From the NCBI RefSeq assembly GCF_009909105.1, contig NZ_JAAAPK010000002.1:349827-413826 (forward strand): a DNA stretch of 64,000 nucleotides, in the 5' to 3' direction. This document shows, piece after piece, positions 5,526 through 13,154 of this stretch (position 1 is its first letter; each line of letters opens with the position of its first letter). Below the pieces are notes generated by a model, which was given only the letters and a program-made list of their open reading frames with translations, was not told the origin of the DNA and made no database searches. This DNA comes from Corallococcus exiguus (lineage in GTDB: Bacteria; Myxococcota; Myxococcia; Myxococcales; Myxococcaceae). Both the position numbers and the translations under genes were made by a program.

Positions 5526-5616
5526 GGTGTTCGCCTTGCTCCGGAATTGGTGTTCGGCTTGTCCCGGAGCCGGTGTTCGGCTTGCTCCGGAATCGGTGAT
5601 CGGGATCGTCCGGAGC
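5526..5616. repeat. Intergenic tandem repeat, 4 units of ~22-24 bp (GGTGTTCGGCTTGCTCCGGAAT-like)
   Basis: Seen directly: ggtgttcgccttgctccggaat / tggtgttcggcttgtcccggagcc / ggtgttcggcttgctccggaat / cggtgatcgggatcgtccggagc. Confidence 0.5.
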
Positions 5617-5823: not shown

Positions 5824-6888
5824 ATGCAGCGCTTTGTCCTCTTGGGTCTTGCACTGCTCACGGCCTGTGCAACGCCTGTCCATCAGGCCGCATCGCCTGT
5901 CCAGCCCAGCCCGGTCTACGTGTTCGAAGGCGTGGAGGTGTTCGGCTCACGCAAGGTGCCCAAGGGCAAGCTGCTGGAGGTCATTGGGATGCCTGCGCCC
6001 GGCGCGCGCTTCAACCTCGAGAAGGGGGAGTTCACGCCGTACCTCATGGAGAGCAAGCCGCGGCTCCTGGCGGCCTACAAGTTCGCGTTCTGCAGGTACT
6101 CGATGGTGGCCTACCCGCCGACGCGGACGTTCCGGGTGACGGTGGATCTGGTCGATGCCGGAGATGAGTGGCGCATGCCCTTTTCACCCGCGCCGCAGGG
6201 CGATATCCCGGAGCCGGAGGGCCTCCTCACGGCCTGGGATGAATACCAGACGGCCTACTGGAAGCTGAGCAGGGAAGGGGCTGTCCCCGAGTACGGCAAG
6301 AGCAAGTGCCATGCCCTCAACTGCCATGGAGGATTCGACCACCCCGAGCTCGCGCCGCTGGAGCAGCGCTTCATGGATGGTGTTCCCCGCAATCTCGACA
6401 CGCTGGTGCGGGTGCTGCGTGAGGATCGCAACGACTCCAAGCGAATGGCCACGGTCATGCTCCTGCCCTACATCAACTCACGCGAGCAACTGGTGAAGCT
6501 CGTTCTCCCGTCGGTGCGCGACCCCTACGAGGGTGTGCGCAACGAGGCGCTGCGCCTGCTGGGAACGATGCAGGAGGGACAGCCGCGGGTCATCATCCCG
6601 CTGGAGCCCGTGCTCGAAGCGCTCTGGTACCCGCTCGAGACCGACCGCAACAAGGCAGCCTGGGCGCTCGTGCACATCGTGGAAACCGAAGGCGCCGCCC
6701 AACAGCGGCAGATTCTCGACAAGGCGGGCGCGGTGCTGGTGGAGATGGCTGGAATGCAGCAGAAGACCGATGCCGAGCCTGCTCGCAAGGTGCTCGCCAT
6801 CCTGGCGGGGCGGGACCTGGGTGACGAGCCGGCGGCCTGGCACCGTTGGGTCGAGCAGACGCTCGGCTCGAACAGTGCCCATCGGTGA
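5824..6888 (+). CDS. Lipoprotein with HEAT/ARM-like C-terminal repeats
   Basis: Signal peptide + lipobox (LLGLALLTACATP). C-terminal half is helical-repeat-like. GGAGA RBS-like sequence upstream. Confidence 0.5.
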   Translation: MQRFVLLGLALLTACATPVHQAASPVQPSPVYVFEGVEVFGSRKVPKGKLLEVIGMPAPGARFNLEKGEFTPYLMESKPRLLAAYKFAFCRYSMVAYPPTRTFRVTVDLVDAGDEWRMPFSPAPQGDIPEPEGLLTAWDEYQTAYWKLSREGAVPEYGKSKCHALNCHGGFDHPELAPLEQRFMDGVPRNLDTLVRVLREDRNDSKRMATVMLLPYINSREQLVKLVLPSVRDPYEGVRNEALRLLGTMQEGQPRVIIPLEPVLEALWYPLETDRNKAAWALVHIVETEGAAQQRQILDKAGAVLVEMAGMQQKTDAEPARKVLAILAGRDLGDEPAAWHRWVEQTLGSNSAHR

Positions 6889-6939: not shown

Positions 6940-7008
6940 TGGCGGTAGGGCACGGGAATCGAACTCGCCAGGGACTGCTCTCGCAGCCCCTCACCGGTTT
7001 TGAAGCCC
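6940..7008 (-). repeat. Partial duplicate of the 3' half of tRNA-Sec (att-like direct repeat, island boundary)
   Basis: 57 nt (6940..6996) are identical to the 3' end of the intact tRNA at 11867..11923 (tggcggtagggcacgggaatcgaactcgccagggactgctctcgcagcccctca). Similarity decays over the next ~12 nt. This copy lacks the 5' acceptor strand. Confidence 0.65.
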
Positions 7009-7153
7009 CGCCACCCCGATCCGCGAGGTGCCCGGGGGGATTGAGGGTCGGCCGGTTTCCCTCTGGCGCGGGGTGGACCGCGAGTCCGTAAAGGTCCACC
7101 CGCGTCCGTTCATCTTGGGTACAGCTTGGGTACGCGGGTAGGGACGGCAGGGG

Positions 7154-7762
7154 TCAGGGGGCATTGGCTGCACCGGGGCCGGTCACGTCCGTGAACTTCG
7201 TGCCGGTGATGACCGCGCGCTCCAGGGCCTCCTTGATCTCCTCGGACACGATCAAGGCCACGGTCCAGCCCCAGGTGCGGAACACCTTGGCGCCTTCCAC
7301 CTTCGCCGGGTCGATGCGCATCCCGGACACGGAGGAGTACGTACCCACCTTTTCGGGCATCCCGTCCTCCGGGGTCCAGTAACGCACCTCCTCGCACGCT
7401 GCATCGTCGATGCACTTCACCAGCCGGGTGGCGTTGAGGATGAAGTGCTGAGCGGGCTGGGAGTCGATCTCCACCGGGATGAGCTGCACGTCGTCGGGTG
7501 CCAGCTCGGTGAAGAAGGAGGCCACCCGGGCGTGGACGACGGGGATGCTGAATGCCGCGTGGGAATAGTCGAGCGGTTTGCCGGAGATCTTGATGGGGAT
7601 CCTGATGCGCTCGTCCGAGTGAGCCCGCTGCCCGATCCTGAACTGCCACGGGTCATCGAGCTTGCGCCCTTCCTGATCGAGAGGATGCCCCAGCTCCCAC
7701 CGGCCGGAGAGGTACACATCATCGCTCAACTTGAAGAACCGCGTCGGCATGAAGTCGTCCAT
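7154..7762 (-). CDS. Putative polymorphic-toxin immunity protein (second, possibly orphan; resembles DUF1629/Imm11-like proteins)
   Basis: 202-aa protein immediately downstream of the toxin and the first immunity gene in the same orientation. Family assignment is from memory and uncertain. Confidence 0.4.
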   Translation of the reverse strand: MDDFMPTRFFKLSDDVYLSGRWELGHPLDQEGRKLDDPWQFRIGQRAHSDERIRIPIKISGKPLDYSHAAFSIPVVHARVASFFTELAPDDVQLIPVEIDSQPAQHFILNATRLVKCIDDAACEEVRYWTPEDGMPEKVGTYSSVSGMRIDPAKVEGAKVFRTWGWTVALIVSEEIKEALERAVITGTKFTDVTGPGAANAP

Positions 7763-7772
7763 CCGAGGCGGG

Positions 7773-8126
7773 CTACTCTGGATCGAGCGCCCAGGTTCCT
7801 TCTTCCCAGCGCTTCAATGCCTGCCCGGCTTCAAAGGGAACGAGCCCCTTGCCCTTGGCGGCTTCCTCCAGAACCGCCTTCGCTTCGGCCGTCCGGTAGC
7901 GGAGCAGATGGGCGGCGGCCATGACACGCACATCCATGCGCTCATGCTTGAGCAGGACGAGGAGGGCATCACGTCCTGCGTTTCCATGGGCCAGGAGCGT
8001 ATCGACGGCGGCACCGTACTTCCTGGCGTGCTTGTTCCCGGTCTTGGCATCTCCCCGGAAGATGGCCTCGGTCTGTGCCGCCACGTTCAGGGCGAACTGC
8101 TCGACCAATCTCTCCAACGTCATCAC
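7773..8126 (-). CDS. DUF2019-like small helical immunity protein
   Basis: 117 aa. The MTLERLVEQFALNVAAQTEAIFRGDAKTGNKHARKY...VRVMAAAHLL...AEAKAVLEEAAKG...FEAGQALKRWEEGTW pattern matches the DUF2019 family as I recall it. Its start overlaps the toxin stop by 4 nt (ATGA). Confidence 0.5.
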   Translation of the reverse strand: MMTLERLVEQFALNVAAQTEAIFRGDAKTGNKHARKYGAAVDTLLAHGNAGRDALLVLLKHERMDVRVMAAAHLLRYRTAEAKAVLEEAAKGKGLVPFEAGQALKRWEEGTWALDPE

Positions 8127-9532
8127 CAGACCCCCTTCGCCACGTTCTCCATGGCCAGCAGCCCGAAGTCACGCTGGGCCTCGTAGGACTGCGTGCTCAA
8201 CCATTGCCTCACGGTCAAGGTGCTGGAGCCCGTGATACTACGCCGGATCGACGAGTAGAGCGCGCTGACGTCGGTGTGCAGGATCTTGTCCAGTGGGATG
8301 AGGTTCTCGGTGTTGTGGAGGGCCTGGGGGCCGAAGCGCTTCACGTTGCCCGGGGTTTGCTCGACGATGTGGTGCCACTCCTTGTTCTTGCCCGCCGGGC
8401 CCATGGCCTTCTTGAAACCACTGAACGAGCTCCAGGCCCTGTAGCCCAAGGGACGCGCCTTGGCGGAGGCGCTGCCGCCCGTGGCTTTGGCCGCCATGGC
8501 CACCGCGCCGGGCGCGAGGGCGATGGTGACGGTCTCGGCGCTCACGGCCACCGTTCCCACGTCCGCGACCGCCGCGAGCCTGATGCCCATTTGCGCTTCA
8601 GCCTGGACCGCCGCCTGCGCGGCGCCTGGGAGCATTGGCACCTTCGACCCCAGCCCCGCCGCCGTGTTCCCAATGGCGGCCGTGGCCAACATGGCGAACG
8701 CGCGCGCCGCGTTGCGGCCCATGACCTTGCCGTAGCGCTCACCCGCCTCGCGGAGTTCGTCAAACGTGGTGGCCCGCTCCGCCTCCTCCACCAGCTGCTT
8801 GAAGCCCAAGATGAGGCTCCAGAACGTATCGACCCCGACGTAGGCAATGAGGGAGGCGGTCATCACGGCGGCCACGCCCTTCGAGAAAGGCTCGGGCACC
8901 GCGAGCAAGATGCAGTACGTGGTCCACGTCCAAAGAACCGCAGCCATCATGGCCTGGGGATCAGCCATCTCTTTGAAGGCGTCCATCATCTCGTCCCGCA
9001 CGACGCCTTGGGCCAAGGCCATGGCCAGGGCGTAACGGCCATCCCCGGTGACAGTAGGGCTCTCCACCAGGAGGCGCAGGCAATCGCCGGGATTGCTCGT
9101 TCGCTCGCACCAGCGCAGGTATGCGCGCGTCAGATCCACCTCTGTCGAGGGGAGATCACCGTCCAGGTGTTCGCCCGGTCCCAGCGGGATGACACGGTGG
9201 CTGCGCGGCTCGTACAGGTATGAACCGCTGCGCGGATCCATCTCGAAAAACCGCCGGGCCGTTTCCTGGGGATGAGTGGACGGACGTACGTTCCGGGCGA
9301 GCGCTTCTACGGCTTCAACGAAGTCGTCTTCGTCCAGCGCCACCGGGGCGGTATCGCCGCTGCGTGGGGTAAGGACGATGGACTCGCCGTGGCCCGTGTG
9401 CAGGCGCACGGACTTCGTGGTGCCGCTGCATCCAGCCAGCATCACGAGCAGTAGGAGAATTGACCATCGTGGCAGCATGCGGAGCCCTCCTGGCGCGGGC
9501 CCCCTTCGCTCGGGAGCGTATCGGCGGCGCAA
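8123..9532 (-). CDS. SitA-like lipoprotein polymorphic toxin with C-terminal WHH/HNH-fold nuclease domain
   Basis: N-terminal signal peptide + lipobox (LLLLVMLAGCSG), a central Ala-rich region, and a C-terminus reading KEWHHIVEQ...HNTENLIPL...H. This is characteristic of the Tox-WHH (HNH superfamily) nuclease. The probable true start is the internal Met (MLPRW, ~9478). Confidence 0.55.
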   Translation of the reverse strand: MRRRYAPERRGPAPGGLRMLPRWSILLLLVMLAGCSGTTKSVRLHTGHGESIVLTPRSGDTAPVALDEDDFVEAVEALARNVRPSTHPQETARRFFEMDPRSGSYLYEPRSHRVIPLGPGEHLDGDLPSTEVDLTRAYLRWCERTSNPGDCLRLLVESPTVTGDGRYALAMALAQGVVRDEMMDAFKEMADPQAMMAAVLWTWTTYCILLAVPEPFSKGVAAVMTASLIAYVGVDTFWSLILGFKQLVEEAERATTFDELREAGERYGKVMGRNAARAFAMLATAAIGNTAAGLGSKVPMLPGAAQAAVQAEAQMGIRLAAVADVGTVAVSAETVTIALAPGAVAMAAKATGGSASAKARPLGYRAWSSFSGFKKAMGPAGKNKEWHHIVEQTPGNVKRFGPQALHNTENLIPLDKILHTDVSALYSSIRRSITGSSTLTVRQWLSTQSYEAQRDFGLLAMENVAKGVW

Positions 9533-9593
9533 GGCCTAGTAATACCAGATAGAGCTGACAGATGCTCCGGGCTGACGCCGTCTGTGGTGGAGC

Positions 9594-9989
9594 GTGTGCG
9601 GCCGACGGCGTGCCTTCTGGAACGTCACGCCGAGAGAGAGCGTGCGCTGTCAGCCCGGTCACCACAGCTTGAGCGTGAAAGGCCCCACCGAGCACCGGAC
9701 GGTTACCTTCGTCTCCGACGCGCGCCTGCCCTTGGACAACAACCGCTCCGAGGCAGCGCTGCGCAAAGCGGCGCTGGGCCGGAAGAACTTCCTCTTCGTC
9801 GGCCATGAGGCCGCGGGCGAAAACCTCGCTGGCCTCTACGCCCTCGTCGCCACCTGCGAAGCCAACGGCGTCAATCCCGAGGCCTACCTCGCCGACATGC
9901 TGCTGCGCGTCCAGACGCACCCGCTTGCGCGCGTCGGCGAGCCGCTGCCGCACGAATGGGAGCGGCTTCGCGCCGCCGACGCTTCCTGA
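9594..9989 (+). pseudogene. IS66-family transposase C-terminal fragment (remnant)
   Basis: DNNRSEAALRKAALGRKNFLFVGHEAAGENLAGLYALVATCEANGVNPEAYLADMLLRV matches the conserved C-terminus of IS66 TnpC. Only ~130 aa of a ~500-aa protein are present. Confidence 0.6.
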
Positions 9990-10183
9990 CGCCACCTCAC
10001 CACGGCATTTCTCCCCGCTGGGACTCGCGGCGCCCGCCGAGCACGGCCAGGGCCTGCCTTCAAGCTCGCCAACACGTCATTGGCCGGACAGTTACGATGG
10101 ATATAACATTTAGCTTGTTCTGGGGCCCCTCTCTGCGGTGGCCCGAACAGCGAGGGGACCAAGGGGCCGGTCTTGCCGAAGTG

Positions 10184-11782
10184 CTATTCACCAACAGGGG
10201 TGTCGATTGGTGGAACACCTTCCTTCTGTTGGGGGACCTGTGCAGAGGCGTTTGCCGGCTGTGCGGCAAGGTGAGTTGGAGTCAAGGAAGGGCTTGCATG
10301 AAGCATAGCTCTTAAGTCGTTTTCGATTTCAGAGAGTATTTTGAGATGAAATATGGCGAACTGGTCGGGATTGAGTCCTTGAGGAGAGGCTGCGCCCGAG
10401 AGTCTCTTGAAGACGTCCGCATGCTTCCTTCGTTTGACCGCTACTTTGTTGCCCTTTCCATGATCGACGTCGTGTCTGATTTCTGTGCGAAGCGTGTTTA
10501 CATCTATGAAGGAAGAAGGTGGCGACTCGCCGAGTCGCTCCCCAGGGCCTTCCCACAAAAGAAAGTAAAGGTTGTCGATCAGCTTTTCATATTCTGCGAC
10601 GTCCGAAATCAAAACTCCAAGGCTTCTCTGTGCCTTCAGGGTTTTGTTTGTTGGCTTGAAGAGGTCTTTGCCGGTGGCGGATTGAGATTTTGTGTTTATC
10701 TGCTCAATCAGTTCTGCGATTTGTTCTGCCTTGGCGAGGACGTCGGCCTTAGGAGTCGTTTTGGCGATGGCTGTGGCGCCAAAAGCACTGGCCAGTTCAG
10801 GGTTTTTGGTGAGGAGCTTTTTGGTGAGGATGCGCTGTCGGGCCTCTGGGCCGGATTTGATATTGGCGTTGATTGTCTTCTGGAATTCGAGGTAGTCGCG
10901 ATCGGTGGCCTTGACCCCTAGTTCTACTTGCTTGGAAAGCTCTTCTGTGAAGGCTTCGGCGAAGCTGGAGAACACCGTCTCGTGTCCAACGGCCTTTCCT
11001 GCTGAGACGAGCGTTGCCGCAAGGGTGAAGATTGATTGAACTATGGTCCGGTTGTGTAGTGCTGGGGAAGGGGCGGGAAAGGATTTGTCGAGAAAGGCTA
11101 GTGTTGATGTGATTCTTTTGGCGACCGCTGATTTTCTTGAGAATGTCGAGTTGTTTTCGAATATCAGCTTGAGGTCGTCAAAGCGAAGGCCTGTTGTGAT
11201 CCCCTTGATTTCGATTGCGCAGGCCTTGGCGGCAATGTCGAGATGTGAGTGGCGGTAGTCCTCGACTTGGCATTTTGACTTGAAAAAACTGTGCTTTGAT
11301 ACGTCGAGTGCGAAGTCGCGCAATTCGCTGTGAATGGCGTTTAGTCTCTCGCTGCTCGTGAGCGGAAGTCCGAGTTGGAGTCTTTGAAAGAACTCCTTGA
11401 GGTCTGATTCAATGGCCCCGGTGATTACGTCGTACTCGATCTCGAAGTCATCGAATTTGTCTGCTATCGCAGTTGGGAGTTCTTTGTAGAGTTTCCCTCC
11501 CATTTGAGTGGGAGAGTCCATAGGGATCTCAAGCTCATTTCCAAAGAAGCGCCAGATGGCCTGAAGGCGCTGCTGCCCGTCGACCACTTCGTACTGGTCG
11601 CTGTCGTTGGACTTCTTGACAAAGTAGAATTTTGGCAGCTTCCATCCGCGTAGGATGCTGTCGATAAGATTCTGCTGAAGCTTTTTGTCCCAGACTTTCC
11701 CGCGTTGCCAATCTGGAATCTCATAGCGACCGCGCCGTGCATAAATCTTGTCGAGAGACCTCTTCTCTGATCTCATTTCCAT
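10184..11782 (-). CDS. DUF262 (ParB/Srx-like nuclease domain, GmrSD N-terminal-like) protein; candidate anti-phage defence gene
   Basis: N-terminal IPDWQRGKVWDKK...VVDGQQRLQAI motif (the DGQQR signature of DUF262). The gene is conspicuously AT-rich relative to its flanks. No DUF1524 H..H motif is obvious in the C-terminal ~350 aa. Confidence 0.6.
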   Translation of the reverse strand: MEMRSEKRSLDKIYARRGRYEIPDWQRGKVWDKKLQQNLIDSILRGWKLPKFYFVKKSNDSDQYEVVDGQQRLQAIWRFFGNELEIPMDSPTQMGGKLYKELPTAIADKFDDFEIEYDVITGAIESDLKEFFQRLQLGLPLTSSERLNAIHSELRDFALDVSKHSFFKSKCQVEDYRHSHLDIAAKACAIEIKGITTGLRFDDLKLIFENNSTFSRKSAVAKRITSTLAFLDKSFPAPSPALHNRTIVQSIFTLAATLVSAGKAVGHETVFSSFAEAFTEELSKQVELGVKATDRDYLEFQKTINANIKSGPEARQRILTKKLLTKNPELASAFGATAIAKTTPKADVLAKAEQIAELIEQINTKSQSATGKDLFKPTNKTLKAQRSLGVLISDVAEYEKLIDNLYFLLWEGPGERLGESPPSSFIDVNTLRTEIRHDVDHGKGNKVAVKRRKHADVFKRLSGAASPQGLNPDQFAIFHLKILSEIENDLRAMLHASPSLTPTHLAAQPANASAQVPQQKEGVPPIDTPVGE

Positions 11783-11866
11783 GCTCGTGACCTCCTAAAA
11801 ACGCTGTTGTGAGTAGAGCGTCCCGCAACCCGTTCAGGGCCGCGTCAGAAAAACCCAAGGAAAACA

Positions 11867-11965
11867 TGGCGGTAGGGCACGGGAATCGAACTCGCCAGGG
11901 ACTGCTCTCGCAGCCCCTCATTGGTTTTGAAGACCAAGCCGGCCACCAGGTCCGGAGGCCCTACC
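11867..11965 (-). tRNA. selC: tRNA-Sec (anticodon UCA), ~99 nt
   Basis: Minus-strand sequence GGTAGGGC...TTGGT-CTTCAAA-ACCAA...GGCGAGTTCGATTCCCGT-GCCCTACC-G-CCA. Shows an 8-bp acceptor stem, a 7-nt anticodon loop with U33 and UCA at 34-36, a long variable arm, a TTCGATT T-loop, discriminator G, and an encoded CCA. D-arm and T-stem pairing were not fully verified by hand. Confidence 0.6.
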
Positions 11966-12007: not shown

Positions 12008-12976
12008 TCACGTCTTGCGCGCGGACACCACGGCGTACTCGTCGCAGTTGAACAGCGCGGGCCACTGGAGTTGCTCCGGTGTCATCCGCATCGCCTTGTG
12101 CACGTCCGCGCGCACCTGGTGCAGGGACGTGCTCCCCGGCTGCCTCTCCAGCTGCGTCATGCCCCGCAGCGCCACCAGCGCCGTGTTCACCGCCGGGTAC
12201 ACATCCTCCGCGATGGACTCCACCTTCGCGTCCTGGAACCCCGCCCGCCGCAGCTCCTCCCGGTATCGCTCCGTCGACCAGACGTTCTCCTCCGGGAAGG
12301 CAATCAGTCCCCGCCAGTAGCGGTAGCGCAGCCGCGCTCGGAGTCCTGCTCCAGCCTCACGGTCCGTCTTCTGCGCCATGTCCGCCATCACCAGCCGGCC
12401 TCCCGGCTTCAGCACCCGGAAGGCCTCGCGCAGGAAGTCCTGCCGCATCCGGAAGTGCATCGCGGACTCCAGCGCGAACACCACGTCGAACGCTCCCTCC
12501 GGCCCCGGCAGCGCCGTCGCGCTCCCCACCTCCAGCCGGACCACGCCCTCCAGCCCCGTCAGCTTCACGCGCTCCCGGCCCACCTTCACCTGGTTCGGCG
12601 TGATGTTCACCCCGACGATGCTCGCGGGCTTGAACTCCTCCGCCCACAGCAGGTCCTGGTCCGCGTACCCGAAGCCGCAGTCCAAGACGGCATCCCCAGG
12701 CCCCAGCTTCGCCGTCCTCGCCAACAGGCGCGCCATCTCCGCCTGGGCGGACCGGAACAGCTCACCCACGCGCTCCACGTTGGTGTCGTCCACCTTCTCC
12801 ACGTGCTTCCAGTAGCCCAGGTTGATCCAGAAGGGCTCCCGGCCCGTCGTCACCCGGATGTCGCTCGGCGCGGGCATCCCCGCCACCCAGGCTCCCGTCT
12901 CGTTCGTATAGAAGCGCTCCGGGTCCGCCAGAAACGCACTCTTCAGCCGCGTCGCGACCTGCCTCACGTTGACCAT
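12008..12976 (-). CDS. Class I SAM-dependent methyltransferase
   Basis: The VLDCGFGYADQD (motif I) and VKPGGRLVMAD motifs are present. Start chosen at MVNVRQ (the ORF table extends to 13033). Confidence 0.6.
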   Translation of the reverse strand: MVNVRQVATRLKSAFLADPERFYTNETGAWVAGMPAPSDIRVTTGREPFWINLGYWKHVEKVDDTNVERVGELFRSAQAEMARLLARTAKLGPGDAVLDCGFGYADQDLLWAEEFKPASIVGVNITPNQVKVGRERVKLTGLEGVVRLEVGSATALPGPEGAFDVVFALESAMHFRMRQDFLREAFRVLKPGGRLVMADMAQKTDREAGAGLRARLRYRYWRGLIAFPEENVWSTERYREELRRAGFQDAKVESIAEDVYPAVNTALVALRGMTQLERQPGSTSLHQVRADVHKAMRMTPEQLQWPALFNCDEYAVVSARKT

Positions 12977-13154
12977 CGCCAGCCTCCTGGGCCTTCCATC
13001 CGACGGCCGGAACCCTAGTCCGTGTCTCGGCAATTCCAGGCCTGGCCTGCATGACGGTTTTCACTGGTGAATGAAGCGGGGCCGCTCGTCCGGTGTCCCA
13101 GGGGACGCCTTGCCCGGCGCGTCATCCGAGCTTCATGATGAGCGCTCTTCCGCC

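Follow-up and report, generated by a model that had tools for sequence, protein, structure and literature searches.

A DUF262-family protein with a portable C-terminal helical module at the tRNA-Sec site of Corallococcus exiguus

Introduction

What does a conspicuously AT-rich gene encode that lies directly beside a tRNA gene in a GC-rich bacterial genome, and could its product take part in phage defence? This question is raised by a gene in a 64,000-nt stretch of the Corallococcus exiguus genome (contig NZ_JAAAPK010000002.1 of assembly GCF_009909105.1, forward-strand positions 349,827 to 413,826), which was analyzed as a whole and is called the window in the following. The initial annotation, made from the nucleotide letters alone, described the gene as a horizontally acquired singleton whose product starts with a DUF262 domain, and put it forward as a candidate for type IV restriction. 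DUF262/ParB-type nucleoside triphosphatases (NTPases) recur as a sensing and switching module in GmrSD, BrxU, SspE, Menshen, Dazbog and PD-T4-2. We found that the DUF262 gene is real, intact and horizontally acquired. As judged from alignments and structure models, the family to which it belongs keeps the DUF262 module and swaps the DNase of GmrSD-type enzymes for an unannotated, strongly conserved domain that is found on other scaffolds as well.

The gene and its composition

The product of the DUF262 gene (532 amino acids, aa; coordinates of all features are listed in Table 1) is identical to the NCBI entry 'DUF262 domain-containing protein [Corallococcus exiguus]'. Translation starts at an ATG preceded by a Shine-Dalgarno sequence, and both this start and the full length are consistent with 30 aligned homologues. 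Scans for promoters and terminators in the vicinity of the gene revealed nothing above shuffle expectation.

In composition the gene stands apart from its surroundings. Its GC content is 0.511 (0.559, 0.386 and 0.587 at the first, second and third codon positions) compared to 0.685 for the window, and the genes next to it have third-position values (GC3) of 0.76-0.93 (0.84-0.93 in the flanks), in line with the values of about 50% for the gene and about 69% for the genome given by the initial annotation. Among all 1599-nt segments of the window it is the one with the lowest GC content, about 8 standard deviations down (mean of the others 0.689, standard deviation 0.022). The codon-adaptation index, calculated with the flanking genes as reference, is 0.30 for the DUF262 gene and 0.50-0.76 for eight other scored genes; by this measure and by its GC3 of 0.587 the gene is atypical for its host. 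The proposed horizontal acquisition is thus borne out by composition and codon usage, and further by the att-like repeats of the adjacent tRNA gene (see below) and by the finding that the exact protein was detected in this C. exiguus strain only, with the next-best homologue at 55% identity. That the acquisition was recent forms part of our best explanation of the locus, which we hold as a whole with modest confidence.

Domain organization of the DUF262 protein

Searching Pfam with the full protein returned a significant DUF262 match and little else. The GmrSD_N family (PF03235) was matched at aa 15-135 with an E-value of 2.1e-20 (74.1 bits, cutoff 33.2), whereas no DUF1524 or HNH family was matched at E <= 1, and NCBIfam gave no match for the full protein. 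Since the C-terminal half is moreover predicted to be all-alpha, the reading of an N-terminal DUF262 domain without the usual DUF1524/HNH signature was upheld. The characteristic motifs are readily recognized. Motif I (QRxxxW) corresponds to Q26, R27 and W31 within DWQRGKVW (aa 24-31), and the nucleotide-binding motif II, already noticed as DGQQR in the initial annotation, is kept as DGxQR in 120/120 full-length homologues. Motif III deviates from the pattern described for GmrSD-type DUF262 domains: it reads F-Q-R-L-Q (aa 132-136, nt 11375-11389), that is FxxxQ (F132-x3-Q136) in place of FxxxN, with Q136 being invariant in the family.

Modelled as a whole with AlphaFold (mean predicted local distance difference test score, pLDDT, 81.5), the protein is divided into four regions, namely the DUF262 domain, a helical middle domain, a C-terminal helical bundle and a low-complexity tail. 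By analogy, the middle domain would take the position of the linker or 'ParBDB' DNA-binding domain of GmrSD, SspE and NsnA. Among the PADLOC defence models the best match was NsnA (E 2.1e-27), which covers aa 3-197 and profile positions 46-249 of 385, and PD-T4-2_A was matched (E 5e-9) by aa 22-82 only; the defence models thus recognize the N-terminal part and leave the rest of the protein unmatched.

Distribution and neighbourhoods of the family

A search of 5.8 billion proteins yielded 1,256 homologues of the DUF262 protein. The best 120 of them have lengths of 492-533 aa and show 47-55% identity at 92-99% query coverage. An alignment of 30 homologues contains many invariant polar residues and has a mean column identity of 62%. 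A typical member comprises ~495 aa with ~50% identity over the full length, and the family extends over at least five phyla. Full-length members occur in Rhizomicrobium and Motiliproteus (Pseudomonadota), in several Acidobacteriota, in Verrucomicrobiota and Planctomycetota, in Hymenobacter (Bacteroidota) and in Streptomyces and Saccharothrix (Actinomycetota); no Myxococcota were present among the best 80 loci of a scan of species-representative genomes. The idea of an uncharacterised DUF262 fusion holds for the C-terminus, but with 1,256 homologues the fusion is no one-off.

We compared the GC content of the family gene with that of its flanks in 12 loci (L001, L005, L008, L017-L023, L036 and L039). 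In 12/12 loci the gene lies below its flanks, by 0.004 to 0.168, for instance 0.556 versus 0.699 in Streptomyces and 0.364 versus 0.531 in Motiliproteus. This fits frequent transfer, and the family seems to be perpetually 'foreign' wherever it is found.

A conserved partner of the family gene was not observed: no Pfam family recurs beyond two members in nine genome loci, and five further contexts differ from each other and share no partner. One homologue is accompanied by a ParE toxin-antitoxin pair and a NotI restriction-modification (R-M) system, and another by relaxase, T4CP and integrase genes. A full-length member (P0084) is encoded two genes upstream of an MmeI-like type IIG R-M enzyme (L008:6001-11253). 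Judged from its sequences, the family is large and widespread, and the gene appears to act without partner genes. The term singleton used in the initial annotation is hence right with respect to a missing partner gene and wrong in so far as the gene belongs to a large conserved family.

The C-terminal module

The region of ~350 aa in which the initial annotation could place no motif is indeed uncharacterised. It is not a single unit, however, as it consists of the helical middle domain, a portable module of 160 aa (aa 335-496) with the pattern R-x4-H-D-x2-H-G, and the disordered tail. The module matches no Pfam, PADLOC or PDB family. When the module was modelled alone from a 25-sequence alignment, a pLDDT of 91 and a predicted template modelling score (pTM) of 0.86 were obtained. 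The motif R-x4-H-[DE]-x2-H-G is present in 119/120 full-length homologues; the residue following its R is T in 118/119 of the homologues that bear the motif, and a few distant module proteins have N there. The helix at 89-101 of the model terminates with R432, and H437 follows at 103 (fragment numbering), while E411 ends the preceding long helix. R416 trails E411 at a spacing of x4.

To a HMMER search with aa 200-532 of 1.84 billion representatives 347 proteins responded, and the module was found in further architectures. Proteins of 390-460 aa that match no Pfam family (P0218, P0224, P0244, P0260, P0267 and others) carry it at the C-terminus, and in P0251 (829 aa) it follows a DUF262 and an HNH domain. 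Across the three architectures nine residues of the module are invariant: N363, K376, T378, E411, R432, H437, D438, H441 and G442. That a portable domain keeps so many polar residues unchanged suggests an active site or a site for a ligand, and we consider it likely that the module is catalytic or ligand-binding rather than purely structural.

Some observations on the other carriers may be added. In P0218, P0224, P0244, P0260 and P0267 the module stands behind a helical N-terminus of ~280 aa that matches neither Pfam nor PADLOC; one contig of 3.9 kb was recovered for them. An MmeI-like type IIG R-M enzyme is encoded immediately downstream of P0251 (L100:1069-6679), so that together with P0084 there are two cases, and a recurrent association with type IIG enzymes may exist. 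Proteins of ~180-290 aa that appeared to consist of the module alone were rejected as an architecture, since they are split or truncated copies: the first comes after a DUF262 gene of 270 aa, the second borders on an rve transposase gene, and the third stands by itself with unrelated genes on either side. Scattered matches of one or two module members each to MauJ (E 0.065) and AbiEii (E 0.016) were likewise set aside as chance. A tblastn search with the module against plasmids returned nothing.

Proposed function and mechanism

The DUF262 domain of GmrSD, BrxU and SspE, which binds and hydrolyses nucleoside triphosphates (NTPs), serves as a sensor of modified DNA, and it then activates the fused DUF1524 nuclease via a conformational or oligomeric change (PMC10952713, PMC12065111). 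By analogy, we lean slightly towards the view that the protein studied here is a nucleic-acid sensor that acts alone, is gated by NTP and has an effector fused to it, as a variant of the GmrSD-like type. On the model of BrxU, SspE and GmrSD, foreign DNA, which may be modified, would be bound by the DUF262 and middle domains, and binding and hydrolysis of NTP would switch the conformation or the oligomeric state. The role of the effector would then fall to the C-terminal module, which takes the place of the DUF1524 His-Me DNase of GmrSD-type enzymes. Its chemistry would most likely be nucleic-acid cleavage. As a first guess we suggest a HEPN-like, metal-independent RNase site of the abortive-infection type; the second guess, and the main alternative chemistry, is a metal-dependent site formed by H437, D438, H441 and E411. 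Both the sensing step and the effector chemistry we infer from these relatives. On the grounds of the domain kinship and of the occasional defence and mobile-element neighbourhoods of homologues, a role of the DUF262 protein in defence is probable, and it may plausibly be regarded as a single-gene anti-phage protein.

The comparison to HEPN deserves a closer look. According to Anantharaman et al. (2013) the HEPN pattern also includes a polar position (N/D/H) directly behind the R and, within helix 2, an acidic one (Ex3[KR]), and ParB-HEPN as well as ParB(DUF262)+HNH+HEPN fusions of a Swt1-like HEPN clade are listed, with Saro_3948 and VNG7073 as examples (PMC3710099). In our model the placement of R432, H437 and E411 resembles the layout described there. 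Like the ParB-HEPN fusions, the present protein would combine a ParB fold with a helical domain that carries R-x4-H at a helix end and a conserved acidic residue upstream of it, and P0251 with its DUF262, HNH and module mirrors the architecture of VNG7073. The spacing x4 between E411 and R416 differs from the x3 of the HEPN motif. Saro_3948 itself was not located on plasmid pNL2, where no ParB/DUF262 gene was found in the last 97 kb.

Several points weigh against the proposed function. With 25 module sequences no Pfam family was matched at E <= 10 and no PADLOC model, including the HEPN-containing defence models, at E <= 1; the module profile found designed helical proteins only among the PDB sequences (E >= 0.14), and Foldseek with the module gave nothing at E < 0.4. 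The profile comparison to HEPN covered two families, HepT/DUF86 and RnlA. In hhalign the module reached a probability of 0.25% with each of two targets, a HepT/DUF86 profile built from 30 sequences and the C-terminus of Escherichia coli RnlA, and the motifs were not aligned in either case; the HepT/DUF86 profile was composed of real PF01934 proteins, retrieved with an approximate consensus-like probe that was left out of the profile. Regarding single residues, a T follows the R where HEPN usually has N, D or H, and the HD-x-DH cluster is no HEPN feature. As P0251 contains an HNH nuclease in the same protein as the module, the module need not be the nuclease. The scan revealed no promoter-like site between tRNA-Sec and the DUF262 gene. 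Finally, most neighbourhoods of the family consist of plain housekeeping genes, which leaves the argument from a 'defence island' weak.

Taken together, the module is HEPN-like in its motif and predicted layout, and homology to HEPN was not demonstrated by the fold and profile comparisons. We therefore regard the specific assignment as a HEPN-type RNase as tentative and, on balance, doubtful. According to a different explanation, aa 335-496 constitute a new portable effector domain that is no HEPN homologue and has its own E…R-x4-H-D-x2-H-G catalytic or metal centre. It would be coupled to DUF262, to DUF262 plus HNH or to the ~280-aa helical N-terminus as sensors, and the ~495-aa DUF262 fusion would represent an unrecognised, widespread single-gene immune system, overlooked by present defence finders although it comprises more than 1,200 sequence clusters from at least five phyla. 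We think this rather unlikely.

A role outside of defence has to be weighed as well. In fold comparisons the module is matched best by helical bundles of a generic or non-enzymatic kind, and the tripartite layout of the model parallels that of ParB with its NTPase, DNA-binding and dimerisation parts (PMC12065111). The protein might hence be a ParB-like, NTP-gated DNA clamp that serves a mobile element in maintenance, a partition-like process, regulation or anti-defence, with the C-terminal bundle as dimerisation domain. Some homologues do lie in a mobilisable element, and many neighbourhoods are free of any defence gene. However, unrelated architectures have a set of polar residues (R, H, D, H, E, N, K, T) as their invariant positions, which is more typical of an active or ligand site than of a dimer interface. 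In addition, searches of 72,556 plasmids and 50,697 phage records turned up no full-length homologue, and the gene is single, without parA/parS-type partners. We consider the clamp improbable.

Should the module of the NTP-gated sensor indeed be an effector, the family would represent a common type of defence by a single gene, and the ParB-type sensors would gain a new effector that possibly targets RNA. Because PADLOC (2023 models) detects only the N-terminus, current annotation would under-call the family if this holds true. The residues singled out for function are the DGQQR motif and R432, H437, D438, H441 and E411.

Comparison with known systems

The structures closest to the DUF262 protein are those of BrxU and SspE (PDB 7p9k and 6jiv), and when the full-family profile was compared with PDB sequences BrxU alone was found, with a marginal E-value of 0.056 over the N-terminal 55 aa. 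The protein would work most like GmrSD, BrxU and SspE, with which it shares the N-terminal DUF262 domain with DGQQR and QRxxxW. It differs from them by its all-alpha C-terminus with R-x4-H-D-x2-H-G and by FxxxQ instead of their FxxxN. The defining domain of these enzymes, the DUF1524 His-Me nuclease domain, was tested for and is absent, so that the protein is not a member of the GmrSD/BrxU/SspE group. For the same reason we do not maintain the term type IV restriction of the initial annotation, which implies a modification-dependent DNase. A GmrSD/BrxU-type enzyme could still be present if the C-terminus cuts the DNA by a cryptic or novel metal-dependent site (H437, D438, H441 and E411) once the DUF262 domain has recognised modified phage DNA. 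The closest structures and the intact DGQQR and QRxxxW motifs are in line with this, as are the potential metal ligands HDxDH and E411, which are invariant, and the location of homologues and of the HNH-containing relative beside R-M systems. On the other hand, neither DUF1524 nor HNH nor any other His-Me family was matched, and the predicted all-alpha C-terminus offers no beta-beta-alpha metal finger. A type IV enzyme of this kind is in our opinion unlikely.

The best PADLOC match leads to Menshen, in which NsnA is the sensor subunit composed of DUF262 and ParBDB, and adjacent genes encode an ABC ATPase, NsnB, and an effector, NsnC (Millman 2022; PMC12065111). The DUF262 protein resembles NsnA in that DUF262 is followed by a helical domain and DUF1524 is lacking. 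Yet NsnA has no C-terminal module, and its profile match stops at aa 197. An NsnB-type ABC ATPase (AAA_15/DUF3696) is absent next to the gene, where the flanks are tRNA-Sec and an IS66 fragment, and an NsnC effector (inPIN plus toxin domain) was absent from the analyzed neighbourhood. Neither partner was found beside the family homologues, where no ATPase family recurs. By these sequence features the protein is not a Menshen member. It could nevertheless be an orphan NsnA-like sensor of a Menshen-type system whose partners are located elsewhere or were lost during decay of the island, and which alone would be inactive or bind DNA only. The NsnA match itself and the decayed island, with an IS66 fragment and no integrase, would suit such a history. 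It conflicts with the restriction of the match to aa 3-197, with the lack of an adjacent ABC-ATPase or NsnC-like gene both here and in 14 homologous loci, and with the full-length architecture including the module being ~50% identical across phyla, which argues for a complete unit. An orphan sensor thus appears very improbable.

PD-T4-2 and Dazbog also possess DUF262 without DUF1524. They are two-gene systems, however, and only the core DUF262 motif region of our protein matches PD-T4-2_A. No Dazbog model of PADLOC was matched, and no search was aimed at the partner genes of PD-T4-2 or Dazbog. The concept of a ParB-type sensor fused to an effector is already known.

The tRNA-Sec site and the surrounding island

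The tRNA gene noticed beside the DUF262 gene is tRNA-Sec, called by ARAGORN and by Rfam (RF01852; 68.9 bits, gathering score 47), at a distance of 84 nt from the DUF262 gene. The tRNA-Sec gene selC is a classic integration site of genomic islands. In agreement with such an origin we observed a direct repeat of 69 nt (66/69 identical), one copy of which lies within the intact tRNA-Sec gene. Its first 54 nt match exactly at just two sites of the window and at none in 100 shuffles. Pairwise alignment of the copies showed identity from the anticodon loop through the 3' end of the tRNA and an unrelated 5' half, and Rfam gave only a sub-threshold tRNA-Sec match at 6948-7033 on the reverse strand (33.5 bits versus 47). 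By its sequence the distal copy is a displaced att-site fragment and no second tRNA. A repeat of the 3' part of a tRNA is a footprint of site-specific integration, which would define an element at 7009-11866 (4.86 kb).

Table 1. Coordinates of the features at the DUF262 locus in the window
Feature	Position	Strand	Basis
DUF262-family coding sequence, complete, 532 aa	10184..11782	-	Intact open reading frame, homologue alignment, database identity
ParB/Srx-fold DUF262 (GmrSD_N) NTPase-type domain, aa 1-140	11363..11782	-	Pfam, motifs
DGQQR nucleotide-binding motif (II), aa 68-72	11567..11581	-	Sequence reading
Helical middle domain (predicted), aa 141-334	10781..11362	-	Model pLDDT ~85-95; NsnA match runs to aa 197
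Portable C-terminal helical-bundle module (predicted), aa 335-496	10295..10780	-	Alignment, model
RTEIRHDVDHG (R-x4-H-D-x2-H-G motif), end of third long helix and start of next loop	10457..10489	-	Sequence, model
Low-complexity tail, aa 497-532, predicted disordered	10187..10294	-	pLDDT < 50; lacking in most homologues
Shine-Dalgarno sequence AGGAGG, 8 nt 5' of ATG	11791..11796	-	Read from sequence
tRNA-Sec, anticodon TCA, intact	11867..11965	-	ARAGORN; Rfam RF01852
att-like direct repeat, copy within intact tRNA-Sec (anticodon loop to 3' end)	11867..11935	.	Repeat search, pairwise alignment
att-like direct repeat, distal copy (tRNA-Sec 3' fragment)	6940..7008	.	66/69 identical
IS66-family transposase C-terminal fragment, 131 aa, remnant	9594..9989	+	DDE_Tnp_IS66 and IS66_C, E ~5e-10
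Rest of island, host-like GC, three co-oriented genes	7154..9532	-	Open reading frames, Pfam, codon usage
Imm11 immunity protein	7154-7762	-	Pfam
DUF2019/HEAT protein	7773-8126	-	Pfam
469-aa lipoprotein-like protein, C-terminal WHH…N…H motif	8123-9532	-	Sequence reading

The DUF262 gene forms the tRNA-proximal end of this repeat-bounded island, which further contains the reading frames for Imm11, DUF2019/HEAT, the 469-aa protein and the IS66 fragment; no integrase, recombinase or excision gene was found among the reading frames of 7009-11866. With other tRNA-Sec (selC) islands the element shares its place directly 3' of the tRNA gene and a boundary repeat derived from the 3' part of the tRNA; it differs from them in having no integrase or excision genes and in its mosaic composition. 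The atypical composition is confined to the DUF262 segment at ~10.1-11.87 kb (~1.8 kb), whereas the toxin/immunity part shows a host-like GC3 of 0.76-0.89. The IS66 fragment sits at the junction of the host-like and the AT-rich part, and no whole insertion sequence is present. As the AT-richness is limited to the DUF262 segment, the island is mosaic and decayed, and of its parts the DUF262 gene is the latest arrival or the most foreign one. Within this genome the locus is an ordinary case of accessory cargo at a tRNA-Sec integration site. An IS66 fragment was also called beside the gene on a Logan contig.

The three genes at 7154-9532 probably encode a polymorphic nuclease toxin and two immunity proteins; they do not belong to the DUF262 unit. 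The 469-aa protein has a signal of the lipoprotein type (LLLLVMLAGCSG) and, near its C-terminus, the motif 'WHHIVEQ…N…H', and Pfam gave only a weak HNH_2 match for it (E 0.21). Across the tRNA, a gene for an S-adenosylmethionine-dependent methyltransferase (12008-13033, reverse strand) matched the PADLOC model mad2 with an E-value of 2e-18, a match that reflects the generic methyltransferase fold only; the gene has host composition and is probably unrelated to defence. On the other side of the island the exact sequence of the flanking HEAT gene (5824-6888), which encodes a HEAT-repeat lipoprotein, was found in this strain only, and ~200 nt upstream of it lies a tandem array with a repeat unit of 23 nt, GGTGTTCGGCTTGCTCCGGAATC (5526-5616; 3.4 copies, 80% matches).

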